A DNA stretch of 58,913 bases, counting the filler, from Asterionella formosa (Eukaryota), in NCBI GenBank assembly GCA_002256025.1. It is 5 parts of 5 records of this genome, joined end to end, with 100 filler letters (N's around TTAATTAATTAA, not from the genome) between each part and the next. Parts side by side here need not be neighbours in the genome. Positions count along the whole stretch, not along the records: positions 1 to 11,729 come from NKIB01008210.1; positions 11,830 to 23,539 come from NKIB01008225.1; positions 23,640 to 35,335 come from NKIB01008233.1; positions 35,436 to 47,126 come from NKIB01008242.1; 1 more part is not named here. One strand, 5' to 3'. The notes under the pieces were generated by a model. It saw only the letters and a program-made list of their open reading frames with translations. It had not been told where the DNA came from and made no database searches. Position 1 is the first letter of the stretch; each line of letters begins with the position of its first letter. The position numbers and the translations under genes were made by a program. Below are positions 1,901-43,313 of the stretch, one piece after another.

Positions 1901-4061
1901 CAATACTAGCTAGTAGTATAGCTAATGAAAACCGTAATTAGATGAAATGTGACTTCCGGTTTCTAATGTTTTACATTGCACTACTGAAACTTGAATCCAT
2001 AAATGGGCATTCAACTTGTGCTTCTTGCATTTTTGCAGTATAGACTGGCTGGTGTTCGATAGGCCAAAGTGTCTCGCTTTTCATAAACATCTACAAGGTA
2101 CTAGTGCTTTTGTCGAGGTTTGTCTTTAATACCAACTGCTACTCCCATCCATTGAAATATTCCAGATACATCAAAGAATACGCTCCTGTCTTTAAAGGAA
2201 AGGAACTAGAACAATGACAAAGAAAATCTAATGAGACATGAAAATTACGAAACCAATCACTCTGTTACTATAAATAGACAGTCTCAGCATGCTTCTTTGT
2301 GGTGCATATCGCCTCGTATGCTGCGTTTCAATTCTAGATGTATTACGATCTTGTTAGAGAGACGATGTTACGGAGAAGTAGCTAGATTGTGCTGTTCTAT
2401 AATGGATGTTGTTTAGCTATGATTGAGGTTGTAACACTGATTGATGCTCTGGTGACAGACCGGCCGGAAATATTCGTCTTGTGTGATGAGCCATTTCGTT
2501 TTCATTGGATTTCTTTTCAAGCTCTTAACGGATTGCATAGTACAAACATACTGTGCAATGTAGATGATGATTCATCGAAGACATATGATGACTTGAACGA
2601 CAAATGAAGATTTTATCACAAACATTCGTTCCTCTCAACAAGGCTGGTTTGTCGTTGTTGCAAGAATCAGAGTGAGGACTGGCGAGGATGATGAGCCAAA
2701 CCACATTACTCTAACTGGTACATTATCCTACCAAGAAATTTAAATAAAGGAACCTAAAAGAAACAATAAATATAATAATTAAATTTCCATAGTCAAAAGG
2801 GTTACTATTTAAATTACGAGGGCATTTATCAAAATTATTAGATGATATAACGAAAAATTATGATCAGATGATCATAATCCTATGATGCCGCATCATGGAA
2901 ATATGATCGTTTTTATTTGCAGACGATAGTAGTGGTCTTGGAAGGGACCGCCATGATCATTTGAAAGTCACTTGCTTTGCGGTGTTGATTGATTTTTCGA
3001 GGCATCAAATCAGTTTTGACCGATGATTACTATGAACTAGTCTTAAAAAGTACTATAGAGTTTCATTGACAAGCCTCATCAAAAAGCTCGGGGAAACTAG
3101 CAAAACAAGTTTTAGGCTTAACAACGACCCCGGAAAACTGGAAAAGTTTGGCTGAGCGACTATGGGCGTTGCATGTGCAAGTTGCGGTACCGGTAATTGT
3201 GCTGAAACGAAATGTTTAGCTATCTTCATCCTATATTAAATTGTTTATTTAAGTCAAATGATCGCAACTTCTTGCTGCACCCCCATGTACTCTTCCGGAG
3301 TACCAGAGCAAGTTGCTGTAAATGAGAAAGTTAGCTGTGTTCAACTTTTTAGTGAAAAACGTATTTTATCTCAACTCCCAATGTACTCTGTGTCCTCAGA
3401 AGAGAAGCTCGTCCAAGGTGGGGGACTGCTGGTATGCACCGGTAGGTACCTGGTACCACCTAAAAACTCAGAGTCAACATTTATCAATGCATTAGTTGAC
3501 CTATACTTTAAGGGTTTTAAAATCTGGGCTCGGCACAAAAACTGGGTAATATACTGGTCTTTAGCAGTTTTAGACTTGTACCTAGACTGTGTACAGATAA
3601 TGAGGAAGACATTTTATACATTTTCCCAGAGGTTCGGGATCCAAGAAGAAAATAGCCGGGTTACCTGGTACCTGTTTGATGCGTTCTCGGAGAACCCGAT
3701 AGTCGTTGTACCAAGGCAGGAATCAAGATAAATGACCATCTTGCCTTGCAACGCATGTGGACCAGCATCTTTTGCCATACGGGTTCGCATTGTTTTCACT
3801 TCTAACTCCCAAAATTTGCTTCCTACGAGAGACAGAACTGTTCCGTTTCAGTCCAACAGTAGCAACCAGAGTTTTGGGTACACAGCAGAAAACCCTATCT
3901 ATAAGCAAGAGAACGCTGACATCATCAGCAGAATGACGTAGTGTTGACAAGAAGATGAAGATGGTTGTGACATTTTGTTGTCAAGCAACGTGATCATAGT
4001 GTCTACCTGGTACCACATACCAGTGCGCACATCTCAACGACGGTTTCTCTATGAATTTGTA

Positions 4062-4115
4062 ACCGGTATACCGGTACCGGTACCGGTACCCATCCTGGTA
4101 CCAGGTACCTGGTAC
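4062..4115. repeat. GGTACC/CCWGG/ACCGGT palindromic motif cluster upstream of GLTP gene 1
   Basis: accggtataccggtaccggtaccggtacccatcctggtaccaggtacctggtac, about 250 bp before ATG 4359. Confidence 0.85.
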
Positions 4116-4358
4116 TCCAAAAGGTCTGCCTGACACGAGCAGGTCTCTGTACAAGGTACTCCTACCATGTACACGGAACAAACAGGCACATCTTCGCTCT
4201 GCTGAAATTTTTCTCGTCTCAGTGACAAGAAACAATTGTTACCCACAGTGGTCAGAACAAGAATTTCAAGACCGGCCCCTCCCATTTAATTTCCTGCTCA
4301 GGGTTTTCTCCAGTGACACCGATCATCAATCACCAAGCATTGCCTTTAAGCTCGCTCA

Positions 4359-6798
4359 ATGTTTGGAAGCAAAATAAAAACCAGTGACGGCACAGCTTTC
4401 GAAATGGATACAAATCCAATGGAACGTCGTATCAGGAAAGTGCGATCGCTTGATTTTGCTCGTTTTAAAGCATCGTTGTCACACGAGCAGCAGAATGCTC
4501 CTTGTGACGTACAACCTGATTGCAAGGCATCAAAGTTTTCCCATGCAGCTCAACGAGGTCGATACTCTTGCAGGTAAGCCCTTGAAAATTCATCATCGTG
4601 ATGTTTATTCAGTCGGAGTTCAAATCATTAGGTTATGTGGTGGTTCTGAATCAGATGTCCAGAGTCACAGCCTGGGAATACGAGACTTGAGGTTAGGGTT
4701 TGGCATCACGGCAACGTATAATCAGCCAGTGACACTCTCCAGAATTGTTATGCCAACGCGCTGTTGCTAGTGCTTGACGCTGGCGCTGACGTTTTTGATA
4801 CTTTTTTGTTCTATTCGCATTGGCTGCATGATGATGGATTTTTTTTGCAACTTATCGTCATTACTTTACTGACGCATTTACACATATCAATCCCATCCAA
4901 CCAATAGAAGAAGATCCACGGAGAAGCTCCCGGCCTTGCTGCTGTCGGATCTCGATTCATCCGATAGCTTTAACGGTCATCATCAGCATTCCAGAGGGGA
5001 GGATATTGAAATGAGGCTGACAACTAAACGATGGACGGCGGGCTATGTTTCGATGATTATGCTCCTCCTATTCACTGTTTCTAATTTCGCTCTTGATTTT
5101 GTCGATGCGCAAATGCATCGATTGGATTCACCTACTCTAAATGATGTACTTAGTATGGAGGTCATTATGCCCCCATTTTCGTACGTGAAGAAGGCTTTTG
5201 ACACGGATAGACCTAGATTGGGTTTGGGGACAGCAGCAATTTCCAGTATTACTGAGACCTTATCACCAATCATTCCATTTATGGGTGGTTTAGATTTGCG
5301 TCGAGACGATGTTTGGGATACACAAGATGGATGGTTCAATACTGTCTACTCCGTTGTTGATCTAGTCAGGGATGCCTTTGGGTTAGAGCCACTAGACAGA
5401 ACTGGAGCTACTGCTTCACTTTTGGCTAAAATTCCAAGGTCTGGTGGACAATCCAATTTACAAAACAAAGTCGTTTTGAAGACATCTGGAACCAGGCGGA
5501 CGACCAAGCACATTGCTTCTCTCTCCGCCCAAGAGCCGTTTGTATCAATTGAAACCATTTCCTCAATTACCTTGGGCGATTTGGCTAACATTTTTGAATA
5601 CGCTATTCACCAGAACCGGGAAGGTGGCAAGAAGTTACAGCAAAAGATGGACTCACACTTGAAGCCAATTATTCAAAAGTTTGAAGCTGCGATTGAAACA
5701 TCCCGTGGCAAAGATGTCAAACCTGCTCAAACTGGAAAGTGCGATGCTTCCGGTAATACTTGTGACGCACTTTCTCCTGCTGTTGGATATGGTGATATTG
5801 AGGCCCTTCAGTTCTGTGCGGCTATGCGACTTTTCGCTGAATGGCGTATCGTTCGCCAAGTGCCGGATGGCTACAAAGGTTATGCTGTTGGAATGAGTCT
5901 CGGTCACAAAGATGTTGTTCAAAATGTCGCAAAGATTGAGAATGCAGTTCATGCCTGGTTGGACCATCGACGCGAGTTGATGTCTTTGGAAGCTCAATGG
6001 AGAGCATCGGAAGGCATGCAAGAAGGTGATTGTGATGTCAGCTTGACGTTTGGCAACAAAGTTACCACCAATTCTCTGACCTGTGAGCTCAGAAGCCCTA
6101 CCCTTCGTGACTTACTTGAGCATGAAATTGATATGGAATCTCATCCGAGTCTGCCTCGTCTGAAGGACAAGACCGCAGCGATGGGATTGCTTTGGGTTCG
6201 CCGCCAACTTGCCTACCAAACGTCAATCTTCAATAATATTTTGAAGATCCCGCGTACCTTTCCGGATGCTAATGCTGCTGTGTCTGCTGCCTACTCTGAA
6301 GTATATGGGAAGTACCATGGATGGACAGTGCAAAAGATTTTTAACTACTCATTTCAAGCGGCTCCTGACGTTAGGGAAATCTACAAATTTATGAATCCAT
6401 TTCATTTGCATCATGTCAAGAGCATTGCTCGCACCATCACCCCTGTTGACGGATCTGTTGAGAGAATGGATTCAGGGGATTCAAACAATGAAAAATACTC
6501 CGCTAACAAAGCAGCGACCATGAACCCGTTGGAACAAATAGTAAAGCACTTAGGAGCCGAATGGGACAAATTGGTTGGTTTCTTTGGTGGAAATGGTGGT
6601 GTTGGCGAAGTCAATATCCGTGGAGGTGACCAAGGTGAGGGCTTGCAAGGTGCGGAACTCGAAGCCTTTGTCGTTGACAATATGACGAAGAAGGCGCATG
6701 AACACATTGAGCATTATCTTGAGACAGCAAACCCACTTCTAAGAGATTTGGCTGGATTATTTGATGACCTCAATATGGAGGATCCTACCAAGGTTTAG
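4359..6798 (+). CDS. Membrane-anchored glycolipid transfer protein (GLTP)-domain protein, paralog 1 (about 701 aa, 2 exons)
   Basis: Exons 4359-4573 and 4908-6798. The intron GTAAGC...TACTGAC...AATAG splices in frame. Hydrophobic segment YVSMIMLLLFTVSNFAL. GLTP motifs HKDVVQNVAKIE, GLLWVRRQL, AYSEVYGKYHGWTVQKIF. Exon 1 is inferred. Confidence 0.8.
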
Positions 6799-8438
6799 AA
6801 TATTCTCCATCCCACTGTTCATATTAAAACTGTATAGACAAATATTACATTTAACACAACCTCCCCCTCGATCGGACATTACTACAGTGGAACCATATGA
6901 ATAGCGTTACTTCTACCGCAAGCCTTCCTACACAGCCGCTGTACTGTCACTTGTGAGAGCAGGTCATCTTGCAGCTTATCTACTCAGCCGAACTCGAATT
7001 GGCAGCGATGTATGTACTCTAGGTCAGTCATTCAAGTTAATTGTGCTTGCTGTTTTACATCCTCCATGCCATGAGAAGATGTTCTGATTTGCATGCACCT
7101 CACTAGATATCACAAGAGGGTGCATTTTCTTCTTCCGTAAAATACCAGTTCTGATTATAGCACTCGAGTAGAAGACACCCCCCCCCACCTAGTTCTCAGG
7201 TTAATACTGTTACAGTCGTTAGACAGAAACAGCAATCAATTTCTTGTTCTTGTGTCAGGATATGAGACCGCCGGAAAAATCCGGTGCGTTTTCAATTACT
7301 AATTAGGGTATCATTTGGTTACATCATTTCATATGAACAGAACCAGGTACCTGGTGCTACGAGGTGACGGAGTATGTAGGGACTGATGTCACTGACGAAG
7401 TAGGAATGATGAATCAATCACCAGGCAGTGTTGGTGTCAACTACCGGTACCGGCATACCGGTATTTCATAGCCGAGACAACCCTGTGTATGCAAAGAGTG
7501 AAAGGATTTTACGTGTACGTACCATCAGTTAGTAACAGATACCATGCCAGTATCCAATCAGCGGGATCAGCCTGTTGAAAATGCACCCACGGTCTCGCTC
7601 ATCGCTCACACTCACTCGCCGAAACGCTTGTTATTAGTGCACCACTTCGATTGACCAATTATCAAGCATACTACCAGGTACCTGGTACCTGGTACCGTAT
7701 ATGCATGATACGTACATGCATCCTATAGTACTCCTACATATATGATAAAACAACGAAAGGACACAAGCGAACTATGACATCATTTCTTGGTGTCACGAAC
7801 TGGCTGATGCCAACATCTACATACAGGTACGTCATGACATTTGTTGAAACTTCTACATTACCGGAGTTTTGTTTACAACCGGTGGTAAATACGTTTGTAC
7901 GTATGTTAGCTACGGTATTGCTCATCACAAGGTGACATATGTCTAAATACGACTGGTGTAAAATGTATATGTATGTAGAGTCCTACATAACTTGTACCAG
8001 GGTAAGCAATGATGATAGATAAAGTGGCCCTCACTTTATACGCAGACATACCGGCATACAGTACTCACAGGTACGTAAGTCTGGCGCCCGGCCTGATGTG
8101 CACATTGTCGTTTCTCCGTACAGTACCTGGTACAGACCAGGAAACTATGATAGCAAGTACGTACCGGTACCTACTTTACCATTACCTGGTACTGGTACTA
8201 ACTAACAACCTCAGGTACCAACCAGTATGGCTTCGCTCGACATTTTTTCCGAAAGAGTGGAACCAAACAAAGCGATCGATCTGTGTGTTCGCTCGTCTCG
8301 AGCGAGGACATTCATGTTTGCGTAAGCAAATATACGGAGTATGCGGTACAGAGCAGTCCTCAAACTTCGTCCAACGCACAATTTAGCTTCCACTCAGCAC
8401 AGATTTACCAACCTCGCCTCGCTCATTCCAAGCAACAA

Positions 8439-10460: not shown

Positions 10461-10698
10461 GGGCGGTCGCTCTCTCAACGAACCCGAGTTATAGACTTTA
10501 CAAAGACGCAAGGCACGCTATGCCACTGCCATCCTGGTTTGCTGTACATACTACAGAATACAATACGCAAGCACAATCAACCATTTACATTATACATGAA
10601 AATACCATGAAAATCTAAAGTCTGTGGCACCAATGTGCACCACTTGACATAGAAAAATGATCTTCAAAACTATACAATATAAAAATAAAAGCCAATCG

Positions 10699-11223: not shown

Positions 11224-11729
11224 GAGATGAAGTGAGAGCGATGAACAAACTGGACCGATTGTTTATTCTTGTTTGACGATACCTTGGTGCTGAGGATTTT
11301 GAAGAAGTAAAGTGTGTGCGAATTGATAATATTATAGGACGCATGATGTGCTCGAGATTGCACAAACTTGCTGACGGCCAGACTGACTCTGTCATTGCCA
11401 ATCGCTTCGTTCCAACCCAAGCAACCCTACCGGTACCGGTAGTATTGAAAACTTTATGATAGAGTGGTACCAGGTACTATGTTGTCACAATGGATGCTGC
11501 TGTTGTCAACCTAGACTACCAGTACCAGGTACCGGTAGGGTTCCTGGCAAACTGCCGATGATCAGAAGTCATCATCCGCCCTACATACATATACTACCGG
11601 TGAGTATTTATAACATATATGTATGATATAGCGGTATATAGCCATGCTGCTTGCTTGGTTGCGCCTTTTTTTGTCTCGATGATGACACTGCCGGATTCAG
11701 AGCCGTCGTTGACTCTAACAAACACAAAC

Positions 11730-11829
11730 NNNNNNNNNNNNNNNNNNNNNNNNNNNNNNNNNNNNNNNNNNNNTTAATTAATTAANNNNNNNNNNNNNNN
11801 NNNNNNNNNNNNNNNNNNNNNNNNNNNNN
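11730..11829. other. Assembly gap with artificial TTAATTAATTAA linker
   Basis: 44 N + TTAATTAATTAA + 44 N; the same construct occurs four times in the window. Confidence 0.97.
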
Positions 11830-12235
11830 ACCGGTAGCAGGTACCGGTACGTTATTTGTCATGCCGGTAAACACGTTATGACTGCACTTAATTCTTGTCT
11901 GTATGAAATAGTACATACGGTAATGGGGGCGGCGCTCGTCTGAAAATCTGAATTAAATTTTGCTTGTGCCAAAAAACTTAAACTTCAACACTCCTTCTAT
12001 TTTTGGGGTGGTGATTTGATATGATATATACAGCAACTAATTATAATAAGAACATTGTTGTGCTCTTGCTGATCATAGACTAAAATTTTAAAAATAAATT
12101 TAACTTAAAATTTTATACCTAGTATGACTACCGGTAATCATCTTCTCGATTGTGTACAGGCAGAGCAGTTTACTTGTTATGCCTCCTGTTGTTAATGATA
12201 AATATTTTTATTGTAGTGTATCAAATTATCCAAGA

Positions 12236-14322: not shown

Positions 14323-15456
14323 TTTGGAATAAACCGGTATTCTTGCTTATGGAGTCTGATGGTGTGTTTGCTGGACGGATTGATGCAATTTCGATTGCGA
14401 ATAGCGAAGCAATACCCAAATATCACAGGTATGTTGGTGCAGCAGCTCGAATGGTAGACGAATGTAACAGACGATTTCTGTCATCCCCTGGACTGTCCTA
14501 GGTACAAATAGTACGATATATGGATACTTCTACCTTCTACCTACTACTCCTGCTACCAGGTACATACTATCAAAGCAATAATATTTTACTTGATCATACA
14601 AACGTACCGGGGGGACTATGTAGACAGACCTATGTACCGACACAGTTTTTAAACAAGCAGGATGATACTCAAGGGATGTCAGCTTTAAAAAAAAATCTAC
14701 CGGTATGTATTGCCGGTAATGCCGGTACCAGGTAATGGTAGTCCATTGCCGTTCTTTACCAGGTATACCGGTAGTCCGTGAAAGAAGGTTACCTGTTTGT
14801 CTGTACCGGTGTATGATACCAGCACACATCAAACTATCTGCTTGTATGTACGTCTGTACCTGGTACCGTATGATCATTTGTATGTACCGGTAATTAGCAT
14901 CTTTTATACTGACTGGTTTGGGTTAGGTAGGGGTACACTATCAGGTACTGCTCGGTTGCTTTCCAGTTGCACGGAAACAATTGAATAGAGGAGGTAAACC
15001 GGTACTCTTACATGTCAAAATACACAGAGTGAAGAAAGGATAAAATGAGATGAGAGATGTGGAGAGAGAAAGGCAACAGATGTGTGAATGTAGACATGTA
15101 TATTTCAAGCATGTCAGGCAGTTCATACGGGTTTCCCTATGAAACAGTGTTATGTCTTCTTCATTGGTCACACAACAGATCTAGTAAGATTGGATAATTT
15201 GTAATAACATGAACTATAAGGACAATGTCTCATGAAACTTTCCTTTATTGCCCTCCTCATCAGCTTTTGCAAACCCAACATGCAGATATCACCTGTGCAT
15301 GTGACTACGTTTACAATTCACATAGATTAGCGTATTGAATACTTTCCTCCCTTGTCTGCATACCAATCTGCCTAAAGGCGTACTTCTATCTACTCGTCGC
15401 ACAAATACACAGATTGCAGTCCAGCTGCAACTACAGTGCGTACCAGCTAGCTCATG

Positions 15457-16464: not shown

Positions 16465-17400
16465 TGTGCTTGTTGGGACGTGTAGCTTACTGAGAGGGAC
16501 AAATGGCGTTTAGGTGCTGCTGCTACTGGTACTGGTACCGGTACTTCGACTGTTGTTGTTGCCTTTTGTACGAACGAGTTTGAAAAAGGTAATAAATCAA
16601 GTTGTATACCGGTACCGGCATACGCAAACAAAATTGTTCTTGGGCGGATTCCGCCGTATCATGCGTGATCGCTCATCATTGTGTCACCACAAAGAGTAGG
16701 CGTGGTACCAGTACCTGGTACCCCATCATTTACCAGGTATATTGGTGTGTTTCCTAATGGTTACTCCTACTACATACAAATTCATAGCTACTTCATTTGG
16801 GCTTGACTTGTTCTCAACTGGCTGTGCGTAGTATCAAATGTCCTGTGACTACCGGTACCGCTACGTACCTGGTTCCGAAAAACATACATTCCAATTTGTA
16901 TAATATATATTGCATTGTACACAAAAAAGAAGCATAAGAAAAATTTGTATGACAATCATAAACAATTATGGCTGACGATGCTGCGCGCAACTATGGCGTC
17001 ATTCTCGGTCTTACGTACGTTTTCATGAAGGAAGGATATAAACAACCATCTAAAATAAAGTGTAAAAATGGAATGACCATCTTTCCATCTTCTGCTGCTG
17101 CTGTTCGATTGCAAGAGAACAGGTACCGGGTAACTTACTCTACTTGTCCACCGTCCCAGGCGTCAGACGTCTAGTTGTACTGTAAGAGAAGCCCTGTTTT
17201 ACAAAAACAACAAGACAAAACCGCTGGAGGTTTCATATAAACATAATTCCTGCCTGCAAAAGTTAGACGTTACTTTTCTCAGTGCACTGCGCAGCATTGG
17301 CCCACTGCTCTATAGTATGAGGACTGTGTTTCGATGCCATTATATCCAATAAATATTACACATTTAATAATACAAGGAAATCGATGAGGAAAAGCTGATA

Positions 17401-23213: not shown

Positions 23214-23387
23214 TGTGCGAGGTTCAATCTCAAAGACAAGGCACTCTCGACGCTTCTACGACCATGTGTTGCCGTAATATATGGCATGCAAACCAAAAAG
23301 TGAGGTTTGACTACATACCGTACACTAATGCACAATCCGAATATTGGACTCGGAGGACATACTGGTAGTTTGTTGACAACCTGTTGC

Positions 23388-23539
23388 TGGTACCTGGTAC
23401 CAGGTACCTGGTACAGGTACTATTAGGTACGCGCTCCCATCAGGGGGAATCAGCGAGGTGAGTCCATTCTAAGGTTCCGGTACCAGGTACCAGGTACTAG
23501 GTACATGGAGTACCAGGTACCGTAACGGGTATTGGTACA
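23388..23539. repeat. Dense GGTACC/TACCAGG/CCTGGTA palindromic motif cluster in a divergent intergenic region
   Basis: tggtacctggtaccaggtacctggtacaggtac...ccggtaccaggtaccaggtactaggtac...gtaccaggtacc, running into the assembly gap. Confidence 0.85.
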
Positions 23540-23690: not shown

Positions 23691-26600
23691 ATGGAATCTT
23701 CGCCGTCGTCGCCATCGTTGTCGTCTTCACCTGGCGACGCATCTACAACAGAAGATTCATGGGATGAGAAGGACTACATAAACTACATGAATCATTTGCA
23801 GGAGGAGGAAAAGCAGTCGAAGAAGATGAAGAACGCCCCGTCGGCTTCTATCCGTAGCAATGCTACCAGCAGTAGTAGCGCTACTAGTACTACCAGTACT
23901 AGTACAACTAGTACCAGCAATGCTAGTACAACTAGTGCTAGCAACGCGAACAAGAGGAAACGAACAACCACAGAGACTACAACAACAGAGACAACAACAA
24001 CAACAAACACAACGGTACTCTTAGAACTGAAATTTCAAGAACTCAAACATCGTTTGGTAGACTTGACTGAAACCTTTCAGGAGTTTCAAGCACTCAACAA
24101 ACAGAGCAGCCTGCAAACATTTGGAAATACCAAAACCCCGACTTTGGAATTTTCCGCCGTCTTGAACGATCTCACAACAGCCGTAGAAAGATGCGATGCA
24201 CTACTTCCAACAACTGCAACAGCCTTTACTGCCTCGATTACTAACGGTACTAGTAGTGACAATGGTGATGTGACGATTCCTATTAATTTAGGCATTCAAC
24301 TTACAAACGCAATACCGGTAGTGGAGAAGAACGAGGAGTCAGCACATGCTGCTACTAATGCTTCCACCAAAATGAAGACAATGAATGATTCTTCAATGAC
24401 CGAAATCAGGCCAACAAATGATTCTTTGACAACCAAAAGTATGACAACAAATCATGCTCCAAACAATATTGACACAACAGTTGATTGTACTTCAACTAAA
24501 AGTAAAACAACAAATGATTCGTCAAGCGAAATCAGGACAACAAATAATTGTTCTTTGACAAAAATTACGACAACAAATGATTCGTCGTTAAAAAAAGTTA
24601 GCACAGCAAAGAAACCAAAGGCTACTCTGACGACAACAACAGCTACCTCTGCTACTGCTACAACATTGACTAACAATCAAGAACACTTGGAACGAACTCT
24701 TTCCAACACAAAAGAGGTTGGTTCGAGGGTATATTGCAGATGGCCCATCAACGATAGCTTTTATTGGGGAATCATTACAAAGGTATATTACAAAAGGATC
24801 AACGCATCAAAATCAATTCGATTTAATGTACGTATAAAAATATGGAAATATATATATATATAAATATATCCACAATGCAACAATATACATTTCTATGAAA
24901 TGTATTGCTGGAAAACAACTGTTGATGACTCTATACTAACATACACATTCCGGAACAGGTGCAGTTTGATGACGGCGACATGGTGGAAGATATTGGAGAA
25001 TGCAAACGGGGAAGGGAGATAAACATTTTTTCAGAATTAGAGTACTTCAGCAGGACCAAAACCATGCCTCCTGGTCGAAAGAGTCAACCGCCGGTATCGC
25101 GTCCACGCAACCATACCATAAAAAGATATTCTCCAGCCAAATTATTCCAAAAGAGATGCAATTCCTGTTCTCGTTGTCAATTGGAAGATTGTGGAAAGTG
25201 TGAGACATGCCGACGACGACCGAAAGACACGTCCAGCCAAGAAATGGAGATTTGTCTTCGAAAGGTACGGCATACATTGACTTCATTGCGTGTGTTGCCA
25301 TACAGACCCATCAGTCTGGCGGGGAAACATGAAACAACCATTGACCTGACTGACACGGTCCTTTCTCTTTTCAGATGTGCATCCGTATTCCTTCAACAAA
25401 AAAAGCACAAAGAGCAGCTGGGTTGGAATTTGGATGGCATTTTATTTTTTGTGAAGGAAAAGGCAAACAATCGGTGGACTCACATGACGGCCTTCGCCTC
25501 ATTTCTCCACAAGGACAAACATTCAAATCCGTCAAAGAGGTTCTGACTAATTTTGGGGGATGCTGGGAGGATTGGGAAGGCCTTCAAGACACCTTTTATC
25601 GACAAATTGGGACGTTGCTCATTCGGGTGGATGATACTCATTCTCTGGTGGGTCAAAGGTATTGTCACGATTGGACAAATGTCGACGGCCATACCCATAG
25701 CATTTGCGGCACGGTCACAAAATGTGAGAGGAATAATATGGACGATTCTTTTTATCAATTTACTGTCGCATTTGACAACAAACTTCGAAAGCTAACAAGA
25801 CTATCATTGCCATGGGCGTTGGGGGGATGTATCAGTTATGACCAGAAGTTTAACAACGGGACAGGAAAAGCACGCTTGCTGCATTGCATCGATAGTACCA
25901 TTGTCCCAAAGTACTGGTCATGGATCACTCCAGAGGCAAGGGCTGAAAAGCTTGTTCTTGATAAGGATGGAAATCTGCTTCCTCGGCTAACTATGACCGT
26001 TCGAGGGTTTCAATTGACGTTCAATGCAATGACGTCCAGTATTCCTCAAGCTGGGTATGGCGTCTTTGTCAAATGTGTCGCTTTCACCCAAAATGCTGGT
26101 GCATTCGTATTGGCACCTGGTGAGATTTTGGATATAGGTGTGTATGCTCCATTTCGTAAAGAGGATCGTAAACACGAAACTGTATTCTTATTGAAGAACT
26201 ACATCCACAACCTTAAATGTGAAGAGTGGTCGTTTGATACAACTGATTCTGGCTTTCTATTTGATATTACTGAAGATGAAACTGGTAATCTCCATGAACT
26301 CGCCAGATCGCACATTCCAGCATATGTCAATGAATGTGGGCCGGACTCCATCGCTTCTGTCAAGGCAGAACATGATCCAGATGGGAACGTTCACTATCTG
26401 CTAGGTGCAGCGGACGGCAGTTCATCTTTTTCACTGGCAGCTGATGGTTCAGAACACGAAATCTTTATCAACTATGGACCTGTATATGAGCACGTCCGTG
26501 TTCGAAAGGGATATTCAAGGTTACCTCCCGACGAGCTATCCAAACAACAGCAAAAGGACGAAGATGCCGAATATATTAGCGAGATTCTTGAAATGGAGAA

Positions 26601-29156: not shown

Positions 29157-30742
29157 GGTTGCTGCATTTGAACCCCTAGCTCGAGGTAGGGTTTAAAGTA
29201 ATATTGAGTCAGACTTATCAAAAATGTAGTTTTCACGCATAAAATAGATATGTATAACGCTCAACGGAGCTTCTCACCATTAGACACCCTTTCCATATGC
29301 TTAAATACAGTCTTCGGACAAATTAGGGGTGTAGATCCACTCTATATATCGTCAGTACATAGGATCTGGTCAGAAACTGCAGAAAGAAACTTCGGTTTTT
29401 AACTAGGCTAAAAAGACTCGGAAATTCGGGGGAAATCTGTTTATTTGGCATAGTAAAAAACCGAAGTTCCTTTCTGCAGTTTCTCGCCAGAAGTTATATG
29501 CTGATGCTATTTCGAAGTTACCTATGTATCTAAGTCGCCTTCAGAGGACCCAGCCAACGTTGAGCTATCGTCGTCCAAAAATTCGACAAAATCGGCCTTT
29601 TCTACGGTCTCCAAAATATCGGAATCAGAATTACTATGAGCCGAAACGTCATCATCGGAATAGTAGTTGTGTGCCGAAATTTTAGTCCTAAAATCTCCTG
29701 TCCAACAAATTCCATTGTAATTGCCTGCTTCCACATATACAATATGATTGGTCAACATCTAATACCAGTACCGGTATTGTGATTCGCTTTGCCTTGAAAG
29801 AATGGACAGAGTGTGCTGCTTTTTCTCTGATTATCATTCCGGCCGCAACGTTTGCATTGCGCATTTGCATTCTTTGTTGTGGCCTCCTGACCTTGGCTTC
29901 TAATAAAGCCAATGGAGACAGCTCGAATTGTAGAATCATCATTACAGATGATTGTAGAGTAGATAACATTGTATTTAGTTATGGCATTAACCATCATTTC
30001 CACACCCGCATCTGGTTCCATTGCCTTCGAACTTCCAGTTATGTGATTCTTGGAGCAAACATGATGTTTGATAGGTTTCTTGTACCGTATAGCCCTGTCT
30101 CACACATTACAGACCTTTGATTTTACTCGATAGTCTAGAATCTTTCTCGTGTAGCCACCAATACAGAATGCATGGCCACTTACAGAGTGTATTTATTTCC
30201 ACTGGATTGCTGCTGCCATCCCATATTATAAGTAACGGTGAGTCGCGGCATATTGAGTAAAGACATGTGTTCTGTAACAGGTATTATACTATTCCACCAC
30301 TGGAAATCTCCTCCTTTGTTCGCCCAATCGCCGCATTCTTGCACATTCCTCTTCCTGACATGTTGGACAGGTATCATGACTGTAGTTGAATGGGTCATCC
30401 CCCTTGTTGTCATGATGATGTGTAACTTTGCTCATGGTTGATTGTATGGCCCCTTTTTTGTTTCTTACCAGTATAGTCATCAACGATATTTGCCATGTTG
30501 CCAGCTTGATTCTCTGACACACATATGTTGATCGTATTATAGGGTTTATATACATTCAGTGATGATATTGTTTATATATATATTTAGCGAAGCAAATCGA
30601 AAAGGAATCTATGTACGTACACGCAAATTTCCACTGATTTAATTATTTCAAATAGAATCACGTCATTCAAAAATAGCCCAGGCAATTTTGGCAACCCTAA
30701 GAAATATTCTAATTTTTGCCTAGGGGTTCAAATGCAGCAACC
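29157..30742 (-). mobile_element. Internally deleted Kolobok-type DNA transposon with 23-bp TIRs and TTAA target-site duplication
   Basis: Perfect TIR GGTTGCTGCATTTGAACCCCTAG at both ends; TTAA at 29153-29156 and 30743-30746. Frameshifted minus-strand transposase: MGWQQQSSG, GHAFCIGGYTRKILDYRVKSKVCNVC, GSSKAMEPDAGVEM, IICNDDSTIRA, C-terminal CKRCGR...LCPF. Confidence 0.85.
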
Positions 30743-31483: not shown

Positions 31484-32224
31484 TTAAATTGATGTACCGG
31501 TACAGACTTCATTGTTTAATGTAAAAGTTATAGTAACTACCTGGTACTGATAATTTTTCAAATTCGTATCCCAACGACTTTTGAACCATAACCTAGAATA
31601 CAGGTATTAACTGGTAGTTTTTGATCACTTTAGCCAGAAAAGCGCAATTTTGGAGACTTGACGGAACCTGAACGCATGATTTCCTGAAATTTGCTGAATA
31701 AACGACGGAGAACGCAGCGATGTCTTTACATGAATACCACTGGTACATGTATGATATCTTACGACCTATGCATGTACCGGTACATAGGTACTGGGGGTGG
31801 TGGCTATACTACGTATTCATCACAGGTAATTTGTTCCTGTGTCGTATCATGCATACATACGATGCTTTACCAAAGCAGTTTTCCTGAAATTTCAAGAAAG
31901 TCATAGTCATTTTCTGAAATTCATATTCTTTTCCAGAAAGTCATAGTCATTCAAAAATGGGAAGAAAAGCAATGCGATTTATTATCCTGTCTTATCCAGT
32001 ATGTACCTACATAAGTACTAAGCAGTGACGATATTGCTTCTCTGGATACGGTAGGTGACTATCCTGATCATTTCCCTTTACCAGGTACCGGCAGTACCGG
32101 GTATGTAGTCATAATTAAAAAAGATTAGGTATTTACGGAACATAAAAAATGACTATACCAGGTTTTCGTCGTCGCACTGTCAGCCCGCAGTTCCTCCCTG
32201 TGGTATTAATAATAATAATACCCA

Positions 32225-35200: not shown

Positions 35201-35317
35201 TCCAAACCTCCATACAAGGGATTTATTGCTGAACTAGTGGGCCGTCTTGAACTATATCACACCAAGGAGGACATTTCCTCCATTGAGGACATGGCAGATG
35301 AGAAGGATTCTGCATAA
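32225..35317 (+). CDS. DPH: Diatom-type phytochrome, PAS-GAF-PHY-histidine kinase-receiver (1030 aa, intronless)
   Basis: N-terminal bilin Cys in ECDRIPLH; DRGMVYRF; FPSSDIPLSARQLY; RAVATPHIIYMRNMG; WAGDP; LHPRHSF; H-box MSHELRTP; N/G boxes SNTVNNSIKF, VADSGCGI, GTGLGL; receiver IVDDN...IDYHMPETDG...SKP. Confidence 0.95.
32240..32293 (+). repeat. (AGC)18 microsatellite encoding poly-Ser at the phytochrome N-terminus
   Basis: Perfect 18-unit run read directly from the sequence. Confidence 0.95.
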
Positions 35318-35335
35318 GTGGAGTAGACTGGTCTA

Positions 35336-35435
35336 NNNNNNNNNNNNNNNNNNNNNNNNNNNNNNNNNNNNNNNNNNNNTTAATTAATTAANNNNNNNNN
35401 NNNNNNNNNNNNNNNNNNNNNNNNNNNNNNNNNNN
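35336..35435. other. Assembly gap with artificial linker
   Basis: N-run with TTAATTAATTAA. Confidence 0.97.
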
Positions 35436-36343
35436 ACCAGCATCAGCAATGGCACGAAGATGTTTGATGCGGATCCATAAATGCTCAATAGGTTCCTCTG
35501 GTGTCCAAGCATCGGCCAAGCGCATGCGATTGAGTTCCAAATCATCCGCACTCAATGTTGCATATGTAGATTCTAAGTGAGCAAGTAAGGTCAGAACAGT
35601 GATGTCTGCATATCCAAATGTAGCATCTTCCAGAACGTTGTAGTAGGTTGGGTCAATGGCTGTTAGAATTTGTTGTCGGAGAATTTCACGGATTTGGGAG
35701 TAACGACGGAATGCGTCAAGGGAGGTGTCAAAGAGACGGTTGGCAGCAGTGATTTGGGACTGTGTTGCAGTAGCACTGTGTGGCGGCTGGATGCCGGGAT
35801 TTTCGGGCGGTACAAAGGGTTCACCGGCACATAAAAGATAAGGAGCAGCAGCCATGACAATACCAAGGAAACCATTGGCACCACCACCACTGGTACAGTG
35901 GACAGAGCGAGCGTTGGCAAAGAGTTCCTTGCGAAGGCGGGTTACAGTGAAGGCTGTAGGTTTGCCCTCGATCGGCTTCAAGAGCGGATGAGGGAATGGG
36001 AAAACAGCGGAAACGATTGGAGTCGTCATGGTGGAAGAAGGCCTGAGAGACAGGGACAGCGAACGGGCAAGCGGTGCTGGACGGTTGATTGTTGAGACCA
36101 GTGCTGGTTTGCACTGTCGACAAGAGCCGCAACTTCGCAGGTGCGGACAAGAGAGAAAGAACAGATATTGTAGTTCTGTTGAGGGGAACCTTATCGTGAA
36201 TAAAGGTGAACTACAATATTATGACTATTCTATTGCTGTTTCGAGTACATCGTTGTTAGCACTCATGCATGTGCCTAATCTGGTGGCTGCGCCGGTATGG
36301 TTCGTACGGCGCATGTATGGAGCATCATATGCAGTTATTAACA
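35436..36343 (-). mobile_element. 5' end of a CoDi-like Ty1/copia retrotransposon: putative 167-bp LTR (36177-36343) plus gag start (36029 to gap)
   Basis: Uninterrupted gag-like ORF LKPIEGKPT...ELFANARSVHCTSGGGANGFLGIVM...ILTAIDPTYY...LAHLESTYA typical of diatom copia gag; upstream segment bounded by TGTTAA...TCAACA on the minus strand. Confidence 0.75.
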
Positions 36344-36397
36344 ATATCAACTGCCGGTATGAACATGTAACCTGGCACGGACTGCGTCACCAGAATC

Positions 36398-36598
36398 CTG
36401 GTACCAGGTACCAGGTACTAGCGCTGTTACATGTGTACCGGTACCTGGTTCTTGGTTCTACCGGTACGGTACCTTGCTCCCTTTTCTGCTAGTTGCAGAT
36501 ATATACCAGTACTGGTGCTTGTAACCAGATACTGTACAGTACCTGGTACCAGGGTGGTACCACCGTACAGTACTTGGATTATCTGTAAGTACCTGGTC
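36398..36598. repeat. GGTACC/CCWGG palindromic motif cluster
   Basis: More than ten ggtacc/ctggtac/gtaccag/accggt units in 200 bp; a further cluster at 37071-37116 precedes ATG 37302. Confidence 0.8.
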
Positions 36599-37301
36599 CT
36601 CAATTTCCCGGGCCACGAGTGAACTTCTTATCCGCCTACCGGTAGTAAGGTCCTGTGCTAGACTTAGGCAAACATTTAAACGATGCTGAATACATCTCCT
36701 GTATTATATATAGTCATTGGATGTAGGCCATGCCGCTAGCGTAACACATACATTTTATTTTGCACAAAAGGGTATTCGGTTTGCCGGGTCCGGTTTAAAT
36801 CTCGATATCCTGCCTGCCGACCATTGGGACTAACTGTATCTACGTTTTACAAAAATATTTTGAATCATTTGTATTAATGTTCAAAAGTTTGAGGGGTGAT
36901 GGTCACATGATTTCATTCACGACTCTACGCCAACGATGTCGAGCACCTACAGGCAGTGGTATTTCATAAATATACGCATATGAATATGTATAATTCATAT
37001 GATGAGCGAGACTTACTATGTAGTATGAATGTGAATTGCCGTGTGCATATATCTGTGCATATGTGCATGATACCAGGTACCTGGTACCTGGCACCCAAGT
37101 ACCTGGTACCAGGTACAGTGTCAAGTACAGTTCATACTAATAATTCAACAATCGAATACCGGTAATAGTACAAGTTTCAGTACATACCAGGAACTGGCAC
37201 ACAGTATATCATACCTCACTGCAAGTGCAATATCAAGTAAAAAGTATTGTGCATAATAGTTTCACACGAACGATCTTGGTATTCTCAATCGCAGCAAGAC
37301 G

Positions 37302-39014: not shown

Positions 39015-39296
39015 ATGTCAATTAGTGGCCAATAACATCTATCTGCTGTCGGAATATGCTCGTGCAGCCTCATTTAGGCTTGAATTGGTTCCCCATACTG
39101 TTCAGCCTGCAGTCCTAAAATTACTGTTATGCCTTTAGCATATTATTGCTCGAAACAGAAATGGCAATGGAAATATTTGAGCAAAAATCCTCAACGTAAT
39201 TTTAGTCGCTTTATTTCCGTAGATCCTTCATCTCTATTCGATATTTAAAGATGGGTACTTTAAGTCTGCATTTTACCGCTATAGTTTTCATTTTAC

Positions 39297-42200
39297 CTAT
39301 TGTATACGATTTTCGGATTCCTCACCCAGTGCTAATGTGTCATGGAACTCATCGCATTCAGTATCCATTGCACATTCACCTTCATCACCTGCTTTGCCAT
39401 TTTTATCAGCCAGCATTTCACCTTCTTCAACAGTCTCCATGACTTTTTCTGTAGCAGCCTCTACTCCTTTCTCGTCCGTGTTGAGTGTATCCCCTTGATC
39501 AGATTCCTCATTCGTGACATTTTCCAGAGTTTCATCACCTTTTCGGAAATCATCATTGGCTGCTACATTGTTAACAATCTCCTCAACAACCTCATCAGCT
39601 TCGGGTGCATTTGAAGTGATATCTTGTTTAGTTTCCTCAATAGTCTGTTCTGATACATCTGGAGATGAAACCTCCCCGCCAGAGAGAACAAGTTCGGCTT
39701 CAGCATCCGTCAAACCTAGTCCCTCGAGTTCCAATTGAATCTGTTTGAACAATTCGTCAAGTTCTGAAGCTTCATCGTAATCCTCTCGAGCCACAGCAGC
39801 TTCCAGAGCCTCCTCAGCATCCTTGATCTTTTGGTTTATTTCCCTTCCCTTGGCAACAAGTTCAGGGTCCACGGCATCACTGGGTCTGGGAGATGGTTCA
39901 TCATTTTGAGGTGAATGCGAGGATGGTTGGTTATTTTGTGGGGACTCCGGATGGTGGTCAGATTCGTCAATGGTGGCCATGATTTCATCCCAACCACCAA
40001 ATTTGGAGCCAAAATGTTGACCTTCGATTTTCAATGCGTGAATTTGTGCCATCAAAACGAAGGATCCCATTCCCTTGATACTATTCCCTTCATCATTCCC
40101 ACATACCTTCTTCTTGGTATCAACCAATTTTCGAATCTTGTTGGCAATCTTCTCCATTATCTCCTTGCCGGATTCTTTTTCCTTTTCATCAGCAATGGCC
40201 TTCACAGCCACAAGCTCCTTTGTCAACTGTTCTAACTTGATCTGTGCCGCTTTCATTCGATCCTGTGCTTCACCATTAAGTTCTTTTTGGCACGCTTCCA
40301 GTCTCAACGTAGCTTCTTTGATTTCTTTCGATGCTTGCCCTGCAGTCTTAAAATCACGAGTTGTAGCAGCATCCTTCTTAACTGCTTCAAGCTGGGGCAA
40401 TCGTGATTGCAAAGTCTCTAATTCATAATTGAGGCTGATCAAAGCAGCATCGGCAACTTTGACAAATTGCTTTGCTTCTGCAACGGCAGCTTCACACTTG
40501 ACAACTTCTGCCTGAAGGCCAGCCATTTCACCATCGGCTTCCTTCGCCTCATTTCGATTGTTGTCAAAGCCAATCTCATTTGAGACAATTTCGCGGAAAG
40601 TTCCAGCAAGAGTGAATTCCCTTTTAAGTAGATCCATCATGTTCGTGTGAATCAACAGATTTTCGGAATGAGACTTTACTTCGGCCTCATGGGCATCTCG
40701 TAGCCTTTCGTATGACGCCTTATCAGTGAGCCACTCCCTGCGGTTCTGCTCGGCCGCAGTTTCCTTTTTCTGGACGCGCTGGAGTTGCCGAGTAAACTGG
40801 ACACGAACCTTGCTGATTCCCTGTTCCTGATAACCAACTTCGTTTTGCAGTCGAACCACTTCAGATTCTTTCTCGGCAAGTTGCTTGCGTAGGAAGATAA
40901 TTTCTTGTTGGACATACTCCAACTTTTTAATGGCTTCACCCTTGGAATCTTCCATGGCAGCCGTCTGCTCCAGAATGGCAGAATCCAACTCCTTTCGTTC
41001 CTCGTTTGCGAGCTCTTCATCTCGTTCAATTTGCTTCAATTCTTGTTTGATCCTCTCATCTTCTCCTGACAAATGTGCGGCTGTGGCTTGAAATCGCTTC
41101 TGGGCTTCTGCCCCGACTTCCTTATCGGCCGAAGATAGTTTCGTGAAAAAGTTCCGCAACTGTTGTTCAACACCTTCAAAACACGCCGATACAGCACCCA
41201 CTACATTCGGAGTCTGACTGTCCAACTGAGCTAGGGCACGACCAATATTTTCCAAAATGGCAGTCAATTCTCCCTTGTCTCGATGATGTTTATCAATAAT
41301 GATCTGCAAGCGTTCGGCCGAATCAAAGTCGTCGGATTCGGCAGCCAGCAATTGCTGTGCTTCGGCTTGCTTGATTTGTTGAATGGCCAACCGTTCCTTG
41401 GCGAGAGCTACATATCGTTCGTCCAAAAGCATGTTGCGTTGCTGGCGCAATCTCCCGACGCCATCCATAGCCTTTTTGACCTGGCTACTAAAGTTCTTGA
41501 ATAATTGGTCTAGTTCTTCTGTTGGTGTCATCGGTTGTTCGAATTTAAAAACTGCGATTGGTGGTTGAATGGAGCGTGTCATAACTGGGACGAAGCCCCT
41601 AGATTCTTCTTGTTCTTGCATGACTGCATGACGCTGTGCCATGGCACGTTTGATTTCTTCTTGCTCCTTTAAAATACGTTCAATGGATGACTCGCCATCA
41701 CTTGCTAACTTGTTGATGGCAAGTTCAGAACTGCCCGCAGCTGCAACAACACCACCCCCTAATTCTTTGGCCATGTCATCCACCCTGTCATCCAATTCTG
41801 TGTCTGAAGGGGATTGTTTTCCGTGCGAGGATCCAGATCCCCATGTGCGTCCTCCACCGAACCATTTAAATGCCGACGTCTTTTCCTTTTCCTTGGTCAA
41901 CCGTGCATGTGCTGCTTCCGCCGCCTTTTTGGCCGTCTCCAACTCCACATCCACTGGAGGCGCAAATGAGGATCCAGGAGAATTCATGCCACCAGCTACA
42001 GTAGATTGCTGTTGCATGGATGCCATGAATTGCTCCGCTCTCTGTGCCGCTTCTTCCGCTTCCAACTTTGCGGATGATTTGGCAAGGTCTGCTGTATTGT
42101 GACTATGATTTGGTGCTGGTGGTGGTGATTCTGGTTCCTCAGCCGCGTGGTAGTGTTTGCGCATGTGTACAACAGGGGATGTTTCCGGCGGTGGCACGGG

Positions 42201-42731
42201 AGTCATATCCGTGTGTATTGCTGGCAGGTCACCGGCACGGGCTCCTCCCACCTTGACACCACGGGTCCTTCGCTTGATGACCTTGGTAGCTGCCGCCCCT
42301 CCAAATGTGACGCCAGCTCCGACGGCAGGAGCATTGTACGACGGAGTTGTCGAAGGCGGTTCGGGTTGAGGTACGAATGAGAATACAGAAGGTGCGTTTG
42401 CAGAAGAATCATGTATAGGTGGCGGTTCCGGCACCTGCAAGGCTGGCGCAAGGTCATGAACAGTTGAGGCCGCCATGAAGTCGAAGCTCGAGGCCCCTTT
42501 TTCGGTGGAAGCAGCGCCCATGCTACCCATGAATGAGAATGCAGAGCTTACTGCCGGCTCAGGTTCAGGCTTGGTTTCTGGTGCAGCAGAGGTACTCAAA
42601 AAGGAAAATGCAGACGGAGGAGCTTCCGTCGAGCCCATCATGAAACTAAAGGCCGACGACGCAGTGGAAGCCGCAGGAGGAGTCGCCTCTTTCTCCCCTT
42701 CTTTGCTCTTCACTTCCAATCCTCCGAACAT
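39297..42731 (-). CDS. Large coiled-coil protein with UVR-like helical hairpins and N-terminal SAFSF repeats (1144 aa)
   Basis: Long ORF; SAFSF/SSFDF/SVFSF repeats; UVR-like AAESDDFDSAERL, AATTRDFKTAGQASKEI and AAVAREDYDEASELDE; acidic tail. Confidence 0.8.
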   Translation of the reverse strand: MFGGLEVKSKEGEKEATPPAASTASSAFSFMMGSTEAPPSAFSFLSTSAAPETKPEPEPAVSSAFSFMGSMGAASTEKGASSFDFMAASTVHDLAPALQVPEPPPIHDSSANAPSVFSFVPQPEPPSTTPSYNAPAVGAGVTFGGAAATKVIKRRTRGVKVGGARAGDLPAIHTDMTPVPPPETSPVVHMRKHYHAAEEPESPPPAPNHSHNTADLAKSSAKLEAEEAAQRAEQFMASMQQQSTVAGGMNSPGSSFAPPVDVELETAKKAAEAAHARLTKEKEKTSAFKWFGGGRTWGSGSSHGKQSPSDTELDDRVDDMAKELGGGVVAAAGSSELAINKLASDGESSIERILKEQEEIKRAMAQRHAVMQEQEESRGFVPVMTRSIQPPIAVFKFEQPMTPTEELDQLFKNFSSQVKKAMDGVGRLRQQRNMLLDERYVALAKERLAIQQIKQAEAQQLLAAESDDFDSAERLQIIIDKHHRDKGELTAILENIGRALAQLDSQTPNVVGAVSACFEGVEQQLRNFFTKLSSADKEVGAEAQKRFQATAAHLSGEDERIKQELKQIERDEELANEERKELDSAILEQTAAMEDSKGEAIKKLEYVQQEIIFLRKQLAEKESEVVRLQNEVGYQEQGISKVRVQFTRQLQRVQKKETAAEQNRREWLTDKASYERLRDAHEAEVKSHSENLLIHTNMMDLLKREFTLAGTFREIVSNEIGFDNNRNEAKEADGEMAGLQAEVVKCEAAVAEAKQFVKVADAALISLNYELETLQSRLPQLEAVKKDAATTRDFKTAGQASKEIKEATLRLEACQKELNGEAQDRMKAAQIKLEQLTKELVAVKAIADEKEKESGKEIMEKIANKIRKLVDTKKKVCGNDEGNSIKGMGSFVLMAQIHALKIEGQHFGSKFGGWDEIMATIDESDHHPESPQNNQPSSHSPQNDEPSPRPSDAVDPELVAKGREINQKIKDAEEALEAAVAREDYDEASELDELFKQIQLELEGLGLTDAEAELVLSGGEVSSPDVSEQTIEETKQDITSNAPEADEVVEEIVNNVAANDDFRKGDETLENVTNEESDQGDTLNTDEKGVEAATEKVMETVEEGEMLADKNGKAGDEGECAMDTECDEFHDTLALGEESENRIQ

Positions 42732-43046
42732 AATGATGCTATTTTATCAACAGTTGAAATTCGCCAGAAGTAGTAAACTATGAACAGAAATTGGTGATCA
42801 ATTCAGCAAACAAAATTTCCAATGAACTCAATCAAATAAAATGATCATATGCTTATTTTGCTCTGCCGCTTCGATGATTTTACGCAATCTTATGATGATG
42901 CACGTTAAGGGCGGTATACCTTGGTATATTCTTTTATGTACACATCACATCTATGTAGGGGCCTACTGGACTACAAATATAATACATGACATATAGGTAT
43001 ATGTCATGGAGTCACGAGACACGATGGAGACAATCCTACAGAGCTG

Positions 43047-43313
43047 CCGGTACCAGGTACCTGGTCTGGGACAACCGGATTTACTACGTTATGTTCTGAC
43101 AGTTATTGTATCATTCTTGTATGTAGTAAGTACCAGGTGCCTGGTATATCCACAGGGAATCTTGAGTAAACCTGTAGGGTAAACTACCGATATACCACAT
43201 GATCATTAGCTGGTACCTGGTACCTGGTACTGGAGGTACTGGTACCATCAAATCGCCGACCGTTGGTATGAAATTTTGGTTTGGCTTGGGTTGCAGTACC
43301 CTCTACCAGGTAC
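43047..43313. repeat. GGTACC/CCWGG palindromic motif cluster upstream of the coiled-coil gene
   Basis: ccggtaccaggtacctggt, gtaccaggtgcctggta, ctggtacctggtacctggtac, taccaggtac. Confidence 0.8.

Follow-up and report, generated by a model that had tools for sequence, protein, structure and literature searches.

Excision of DNA transposons of the Tc1/mariner group leaves small scars at the TA dinucleotides into which these elements insert. According to one account (PMC6943129), cleavage of the non-transferred strand falls a few letters within the element and gives 3' overhangs, and the resulting footprint has, between the two TA copies, 2-4 letters from the start or the end of the transposon; the canonical Sleeping Beauty footprints, TACAGTA and TACTGTA, are of the form TA-CWG-TA. 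The present analysis deals with two short palindromic units, TA-CCGG-TA and TA-CC(A/T)GG-TA, which occur singly or in short arrays in a window (the whole stretch of DNA analysed, 58,913 nucleotides in five joined contigs) of the genome of the diatom Asterionella formosa (assembly GCA_002256025.1). We give about an even chance to their being scars of a TA-duplicating cut-and-paste transposon that have accumulated in the spacers between genes, amplified by repeated hits and some slippage. Excision footprints as such are textbook knowledge; what is unusual here is the density, uniformity and chaining of the units and the near absence of parent copies.

With Tc1/mariner footprints, as described in PMC6943129, the units share a TA on each side, a short constant palindromic filler and a central A/T when the filler is odd; there the filler derives from the transposon ends and minor variants without a letter occur, as they likewise do here. 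They differ from Sleeping Beauty footprints in having a filler of 4-5 letters (CCGG, CCWGG) instead of 3, in their extreme density, in forming arrays that share TA, and in that no source element was found in the sequences searched. In rice, too, small differences between closely related genomes have been traced to the excision of DNA transposons (PMC4423477); most excisions there were accompanied by deletions or filler DNA, whereas the units here are highly stereotyped and far outnumber any visible parent copies. MITEs (miniature inverted-repeat transposable elements) of the Stowaway type, which are mobilised by Tc1/mariner elements, have the same TA target and gene-proximal, non-coding preference, but their inverted ends of tens of bases and body of about 100-800 bp have no counterpart in units of 6-7 bp without a body. 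An earlier, sequence-only reading of the window had likewise denied that these are MITEs, and the only inverted repeats found are those of tract against tract. Microsatellites, finally, show similarly short periods (6 and 7 bp by Tandem Repeats Finder) and copy-number differences between strains; unlike them, most tracts are single, arrays do not exceed three units, the centre letter varies within an array and single units occur at naive TA sites. Literature searches, mostly at the level of abstracts, on diatom excision footprints, palindromic promoter motifs and genome-wide mariner footprints returned no description of the feature, and searches with the unit words themselves returned primers and barcodes only.

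The words that make up the units are far more frequent than expected from 100 dinucleotide-preserving shuffles of the window. TACCGGTA occurs 28 times (shuffle mean 0.16, largest 2), TACCWGGTA 37 times (mean 0.33, largest 3) and GGTACC 54 times (mean 5.92, largest 12), counts reached by 0 of 100 shuffles, and in an unbiased k-mer ranking the unit words and their overlaps top all 6-, 7- and 8-mers of the window. All 13 places where the sequence-only reading had reported clusters of GGTACC, CCWGG and ACCGGT words do hold them, and the clusters are confirmed as real and non-random. When tracts are defined as TA followed by at least one CC(W)GG-TA, with W optional, these motifs reduce to the two units, which form 51 tracts with 65 perfect units (28 CCGG, 19 CCAGG and 18 CCTGG), or about 1 per kb of window. 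The same reading had seen no fixed boundaries, terminal inverted repeats (TIRs) or target-site duplications, but the units do have fixed boundaries: TA stands on both sides of all 65 perfect units and reads as a duplicated target. Adjacent units have one TA in common, so that GGTACC is the junction between them and the 6- and 7-bp periods detected by Tandem Repeats Finder arise there. Single-unit tracts account for 40 of the 51, the longest array in the window comprises 3 units, and half-site spacings of 0 and 1 are about equally common among perfect units.

A comparison of all TA-X-TA words of the window, with X of 1-7 letters, singled out the same fillers: CCAGG (19 against 0.12 expected), CCGG (28 against 0.27) and CCTGG (18 against 0.12) lie far above the next-ranked CTGG (10 against 0.57), CCAG (7 against 0.55) and CCG (9 against 1.2), and CCATGG is not enriched. 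The TA-x-TA pattern is also seen in other short palindromes. In 396 kb, made up of the window and 29 of the metagenome loci introduced below, TA-S-TA occurs 2535 times against 978 expected, TA-GC-TA 327 against 92, TA-GWC-TA 211 against 43 and TA-CWG-TA 207 against 89, which suggests an insertion grammar that extends beyond the CC(W)GG units. Tracts of TA-G-TA and TA-C-TA (TAGTACTACTAG and similar) were observed in the spacers of several loci (L018, L041, L047, L058, L060, L075 and others) and at 23881-23944 of the window, and the same spacers also carry TA-GC-TA and TA-GWC-TA tracts.

Two other views of the unit were considered and rejected. The 19:18 ratio of CCAGG to CCTGG is no evidence of mismatch repair, these words being reverse complements, so that the ratio shows strand symmetry only. 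Arrays of GTAC cores, of the kind known for SBP-type factors, do not make a primary unit, since isolated units keep their TA but no particular letter beyond it; where units adjoin G (55%) and C (59%), this reflects degenerate neighbours. In each of the six tracts that were folded, short hairpins form better than in shuffled sequence (z -2.9 to -3.5), with stems of about 7-15 bp. These hairpins follow from the palindromic nature of the units and are alone no argument for cruciforms.

Presence and absence of units between strains was observed by aligning to contig 2 of the window (11830-23539, 11.7 kb) the contigs of four runs, three of DNA and one of RNA, that come from four studies and are labelled as algae, freshwater or lake-water metagenomes. 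Tracts are present in contigs of all four runs; record 12 of run X5 spans 16490-17006 with 0 differences and record 20 of run X6 spans 14528-17012. Their recovery from independent runs, including an RNA library, and the occurrence of like tracts in at least 132 metagenome stretches refute an assembly or library artefact, to which we assign a practically negligible probability. The indel evidence comes from 12 listed indels of 26, all in contig 2, and five of these 12 are gains or losses of whole units. Run X5 has one unit more than the reference (+GGTACC after 14736), and exactly one unit is gone at 14766 (-6 bp) in X6, X7 and part of X5. In X6 and X10, the depths of which are only about 5-7, three further insertions were recorded: +TACTGG after 16523 (X6), beside the TACTGG-TACTGG of the reference; +GTACCTG after 16864 (X6 and X10), beside an existing GTACCTG; and +TACCGG after 16788 (X10), which turns CATAGC-TA-CTTC into CATAGC-TA-CCGG-TA-CTTC, that is, places a unit at a naive TA. 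Inner letters of a unit are changed in three listed cases (one at 16734, two at 16735), and the remaining four are unrelated changes of 1-4 bp. With 8 of the 12 listed indels falling in units, these are the main indel hot spots between strains in contig 2 as far as the listed indels go. An RNA contig (15348-16873) extends from the SGL open reading frame (ORF) across the cluster at 16526-16872, which may therefore be transcribed; such contigs do not show transcript ends, and RNA libraries can contain DNA. Among the metagenome loci, two allelic pairs yielded one informative indel, a difference of 5 bp (TAGAC) at TAG/TAG between L048 and L071.

Decay of the units by point mutation was also observed. 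Among one-letter variants of TACCGGTA, C>T changes at its CpG (TACTGGTA or TACCAGTA) number 17 against 1.1 expected, A>G changes in TA 11 against 0.8 and T>C changes 6 against 0.7, a transition-dominated spectrum that has the look of neutral decay from one master sequence. In addition, six perfect units (at 3662, 12129, 19882, 24313, 29769 and 48428), five of them of the CCGG type, are separated from every tract-like word by more than 150 bp, where chance would provide about 0.5 perfect units in the whole window. At such distances from any template, slippage or copying of a nearby unit cannot explain them.

The distribution of the units relative to genes is strongly uneven (Table 1). Clusters occur 43-900 bp upstream of about 12 of the roughly 14 gene starts of the window, bearing out the sequence-only reading, which had placed them near gene 5' ends. 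The window carries 27 units in 11.8 kb of tandem spacers and 16 in 1.9 kb of divergent spacers (two), as against 4 in 28.5 kb of ORFs of at least 150 codons, two of the four being in a doubtful ORF without a family match (3240-3728). Its five convergent intervals hold 0 units in 2691 bp; the four that are genic total only about 1 kb, so that this count alone has little power, and the interval 19032-19062, formerly taken as convergent, is not so in the ORF map. The transposon-rich contig 5 carries 1 unit in 11.7 kb.

A larger sample was obtained by scanning public metagenome contigs for TACCWGGTACCWGGTA, which gave at least 132 stretches, treated as 128 loci (634,524 bases). Many of them share the same G+C content (0.43-0.46), carry several more units and contain eukaryotic genes. 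The window had 0 BLAST matches to the 128 loci, and in the absence of overlap the loci are not necessarily of the same species. One locus, L069, is bacterial (it carries genes for DNA polymerase III beta, FolD and a beta-lactamase fold), which indicates that the 16-letter seed also occurs by chance outside eukaryotes; it was excluded from later counts. In a subset of 27 loci (347.7 kb), each 5 kb or longer with a G+C content of 0.40-0.47 and three or more units, and with overlapping duplicates removed, long ORFs contain 1 unit in 207 kb. Units number 97 in the 24.9 kb of divergent spacers (present in 15 of 26 intervals), 127 in the 58.0 kb of tandem spacers (28 of 52) and 18 in the 19.9 kb of convergent spacers (4 of 31). 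The avoidance of coding DNA noted by the sequence-only reading is borne out, but single units do occur in the window in a long ORF (24313), in transposon-rich DNA (29769 and 48428) and at other places remote from any tract. The idea that units are tolerated in coding DNA only in frame is no more than suggestive: the lone unit in the 207 kb of locus ORFs is of the 6-bp kind, and 6-bp units make up 25 of the 302 in the 27 loci.

When the loci, minus two allelic duplicates and the bacterial contig, were combined with the window, divergent spacers came to 4.34 units per kb, tandem ones to 2.16 and convergent ones to 0.94, an approximately 4-fold difference between the first and the last. Normalisation to 100 TA sites gave 4.63, 2.42 and 1.15, respectively, and intervals with a unit were 17 of 26 divergent and 3 of 32 convergent. 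The reported absence of units from convergent intervals thus holds for the window and only in part for the larger sample. Enrichment persists when interval length is matched (300-1500 bp): a unit is present in 11 of 19 divergent and 24 of 42 tandem intervals as against 2 of 12 convergent ones (Fisher p 0.03 and 0.02, respectively). A 5' bias thus exists but is partial. Spacers carry 2-8 units per kb, the upper value being reached in divergent spacers. Upstream of the first in-frame ATG density is 0.5-0.9 units per kb over 0-200 bp and mostly 2-4 per kb at 200-1000 bp; downstream of stops it is 0.2-0.9 per kb in the first 300 bp and about 3.5 per kb beyond 600 bp, so that ORFs are followed by 300-500 bp of low density. 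This profile forms a broad plateau without a peak, and the units keep no constant distance from the ATG. They thus occupy the non-transcribed spacer, which in this compact genome is mostly promoter-side DNA.

An origin by transposon excision would bring these features together as follows. Tiny stereotyped insertions would convert TA into TA-CCGG-TA (+6 bp) or TA-CC(A/T)GG-TA (+7 bp), their source being a TA-duplicating cut-and-paste transposon of the Tc1/mariner/pogo type, the excision of which would leave both TA copies plus a few letters of the two inverted ends. Since the ends of such transposons are inverted repeats, the retained letters would make a short palindrome, CC+GG or CC-W-GG. We infer, along with the transposon itself, the joining of its broken ends and its end letters: ends of the form CC(A/T)...(A/T)GG would yield CC+GG, or CC-W-GG with one extra letter kept. 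Each scar would supply two new TA sites, and the arrays sharing TA could build up as elements insert and excise again and again and hop locally, with some contribution from replication slippage. Scars would persist where they are harmless and where elements tend to land, presumably in non-transcribed spacers, and because spacers here are almost entirely promoter-side, the scars would come to lie on the promoter side.

Several observations weigh against excision as the source. Palindromic fillers of 4-5 letters need letters of both ends or an unusually long stagger, and canonical footprints, according to PMC6943129, retain 2-4 letters. Perfect footprints account for only 8 of 94 excisions in the rice study (PMC4423477), so that the stereotypy of the units would be unusual. 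Of 14 adjacencies in the window only 1 brings together a 6-bp and a 7-bp unit, and in the loci adjacent seven-bp units have the same centre letter 124 times and different ones 77 times (4 and 6 in the window); the rare mixing and the same-centre excess of the loci imply that slippage or duplication contributes, or that there are two sources. The strain differences are, moreover, unpolarised by an outgroup, and each may be a gain or a loss.

The parent element is also missing from the 693 kb of window and metagenome loci, which is weak evidence, as this is a small sample of the genome. A scan of the window and 123 loci for inverted ends of the form TA/CC...GG/TA (at least 16 of 20 letters matching) gave six pairs, five of them tract-like. 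The sixth, at 28610-29188, was rejected as a parent because it lies inside a foldback element (28358-29437) and its ends are not defined. A general scan of the same sequences for TA-flanked TIRs left 81 pairs once low-complexity sequence had been filtered out, and CC ends were absent from them, the pairs being tract against tract, the foldback and a few unrelated small palindromes, and direct and inverted repeat finders returned no other family that touches the tracts. Pfam searches found no transposase family in 109 of the 139 long locus ORFs (those of 230 to 720 codons), nor any transposase in 20 window ORFs except the Copia reverse transcriptase. Among the differences listed for the four runs over 11830-23539, there is no full element, joint or large insertion at a unit site.

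Several of these points would suit microsatellite-like palindromic repeats that spread locally without any transposon, by replication slippage or by templated repair of double-strand breaks (e.g. polymerase-theta end joining), and that are found in promoter spacers because breaks happen and repeats are tolerated there. We regard this as a real if unlikely possibility. It is favoured by the insertions +TACTGG and +GTACCTG, which are copy-number changes beside an identical unit, by the segregation of 6- and 7-bp units and the same-centre excess of the loci just described, and by the failure to find a parent in the window and 123 loci; even the unit inserted at 16788 recreates a 10-mer also present about 60 bp away (16849-16858). 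Slippage does not, on the other hand, fit well with the predominance of single tracts and the limit of three units per array in the window, where seven-bp neighbours differ in centre letter as often as not, nor with the six perfect units remote from any template, and it leaves the invariant flanking TA and the constant filler in any flank unexplained. A rather unlikely alternative is that TACC-N0/1-GGTA represents a lineage-specific cis-regulatory or chromatin element, i.e. sites for dimeric factors or nucleosome excluders kept by selection, which may be co-opted scars. The clusters upstream of most window gene starts, the approximately 4-fold excess of divergent over convergent spacers both per kb and per TA site, the poverty in units of transposon-rich non-coding DNA such as contig 5, the similar tracts in many eukaryote-like metagenome contigs and the palindromic form, common for dimer sites, are all consistent with it. 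Yet close strains gain and lose units, variants show a neutral transition spectrum, no distance to the ATG is preferred and the first 200 bp are poor in units, half-site spacings of 0 and 1 are about equally common, units also occur in an ORF and in repeat-rich DNA, barely more than half of the divergent and tandem spacers of the 27 loci (15 of 26 and 28 of 52) have a unit, and the literature searches returned no published motif of this kind. On these grounds the conserved promoter or chromatin signal proposed by the sequence-only reading is unsupported, its interpretation standing in part only; a secondary, co-opted regulatory role of the units is possible.

A direct physical role, as a DNA-modification target or as a cruciform-forming structure, appears very improbable. 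CCGG and CCWGG are classical cytosine-methylation words, the C>T excess at the CpG of CCGG (17 against 1.1) would fit a methylated CpG, and all six folded tracts exceed their shuffles. However, the outer invariant TA lies outside both methylation words, the sequence itself gives no sign of modification, stems of about 7-15 bp are short for cruciform extrusion, and insertion unit by unit at TA would be left unexplained. It is also quite unlikely, in our view, that excision has here become a self-feeding footprint ratchet, in which a near-uniform palindromic scar results from repeated visits to most promoter-side spacers, each scar creating new TA targets and so promoting the growth of GC-rich arrays, which are in turn co-opted as a promoter or chromatin feature, for instance for nucleosome exclusion or as a dimeric factor site.

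If the units are excision scars, they constitute an exceptional record of cut-and-paste transposition, with about 1 perfect scar per kb and at least as many decayed ones in the presence of few or no visible parents, and excision repair alone could reshape the composition of promoter-side sequence. Under a ratchet, a large share of the upstream DNA of this lineage would have been written by excision repair, and should the units prove functional, they would offer a clear example of regulatory DNA that originated as transposon scars. The units provide fast, easily scored markers of strain divergence for natural freshwater populations. They also call for caution in the mining of promoter motifs in diatoms: the strongest over-represented upstream words of this genome may be mutational debris and no regulatory code, unless a function is shown.

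Table 1. Tracts and clusters of TA-CC(W)GG-TA units along the window
Position	Units	Context
3186..3195	one TA-CCGG-TA unit plus GGTACC junction	
3438..3457	small tract, 1 perfect TA-CCTGG-TA and degenerate neighbours	
3662..3672	single TA-CCTGG-TA	more than 150 bp from other tracts
4004..4115	cluster, 6 perfect (three tandem CCGG; CCAGG-CCTGG pair)	upstream of first GLTP gene
7343..7463	cluster, 2 perfect CCGG	
7672..7696	array, 3 seven-bp units CCAGG-CCTGG-CCTGG	
7859..8219	cluster, 3 perfect	about 220 bp upstream of first ATG of second GLTP gene
11428..11601	cluster, 5 perfect	about 205 bp upstream of FSAF1 gene (minus strand)
11830..11869	tract, 1 perfect	start of contig 2
12129..12136	isolated TA-CCGG-TA	43 bp before first ATG of ORF 12128-12742
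14554..15004	cluster, 7 perfect	upstream of FtsJ gene; strain differences inside
16526..16872	cluster, 5 perfect	SGL/MatE divergent spacer; strain differences; crossed by RNA contig 15348-16873
19882..19889	isolated TA-CCGG-TA	between MatE and DUF4505 gene
23387..23521	cluster, 6 perfect seven-bp units	end of contig 2, some 170 bp upstream of RRM-Surp-CID gene (minus strand)
24313..24320	isolated TA-CCGG-TA	inside 407-codon ORF, in frame (Ile-Pro-Val)
29769..29776	isolated TA-CCGG-TA	repeat-rich DNA
31495..31547	2 perfect	upstream of phytochrome gene
31740..31782	1 perfect	
32079..32162	tract, 1 perfect	63 bp upstream of first ATG of phytochrome ORF
36292..36644	cluster, 6 perfect	divergent spacer of ORFs 35436-36218 (minus) and 37260-39014 (plus)
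37071..37191	cluster, 5 perfect	111 bp upstream of first ATG of ORF 37260-39014
43047..43312	cluster, 4 perfect	about 316 bp upstream of 1148-codon ORF (minus strand)
48428..48435	isolated TA-CCGG-TA	transposon-rich contig 5

The window is composed of five contigs (1-11729, 11830-23539, 23640-35335, 35436-47126 and 47227-58913), each of about 11.7 kb and in descending order of length, joined by linkers of the form N44-TTAATTAATTAA-N44 at 11730-11829, 23540-23639, 35336-35435 and 47127-47226. As it is not one locus, ORFs are cut at contig edges, that of the phytochrome (end 35317) being an example. It is gene-dense eukaryotic DNA carrying long ORFs, with Pfam matches to two GLTP-domain genes, FSAF1, FtsJ, SGL, MatE, DUF4505, an RRM-Surp-CID protein, a fusion of phytochrome, histidine kinase and receiver, and a Copia-type reverse transcriptase. 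For the SGL protein, the Protein Atlas gave only clusters dominated by bacteria, which were uninformative as to taxonomy. The two GLTP genes are in tandem (4873-6798 and 8202-10460) and have the GLTP (glycolipid-transfer-protein) domain at the C-terminus, after about 400 residues without a family match. The phytochrome (GAF-PHY) fusion with histidine kinase and receiver occupies 32219-35317 and has an (AGC)18 run near its start (32240-32294). In the bin 19650-20040, which contains one unit only, contig depth, when summed, reaches roughly 100-fold the value of adjacent bins in each of the four runs, the RNA run included (108,784 in X5 against about 1,000), a peak that may correspond to a short, very abundant word or repeat.

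Repeats of other kinds are also present. The foldback element at 28358-29437 has arms of 206 nt with 92% complementarity plus additional arms, related pieces at 30720-30756 and 31317-31475, and a second partial copy about 2.5 kb away. A Copia-type long terminal repeat (LTR) retrotransposon at 48845-54103, with an RVT_2 match at 52382-53773 and no units inside, looks young, its two 250-nt LTRs (48845-49094 and 53854-54103) being 98% identical. Contig 5 further contains a perfect 52-bp duplication (49895-49998), three 57-bp copies (56500-56677) and, at its end, a satellite-like tandem array (57489-58521) with a period of about 196 or 407 bp and 73-83% matches.

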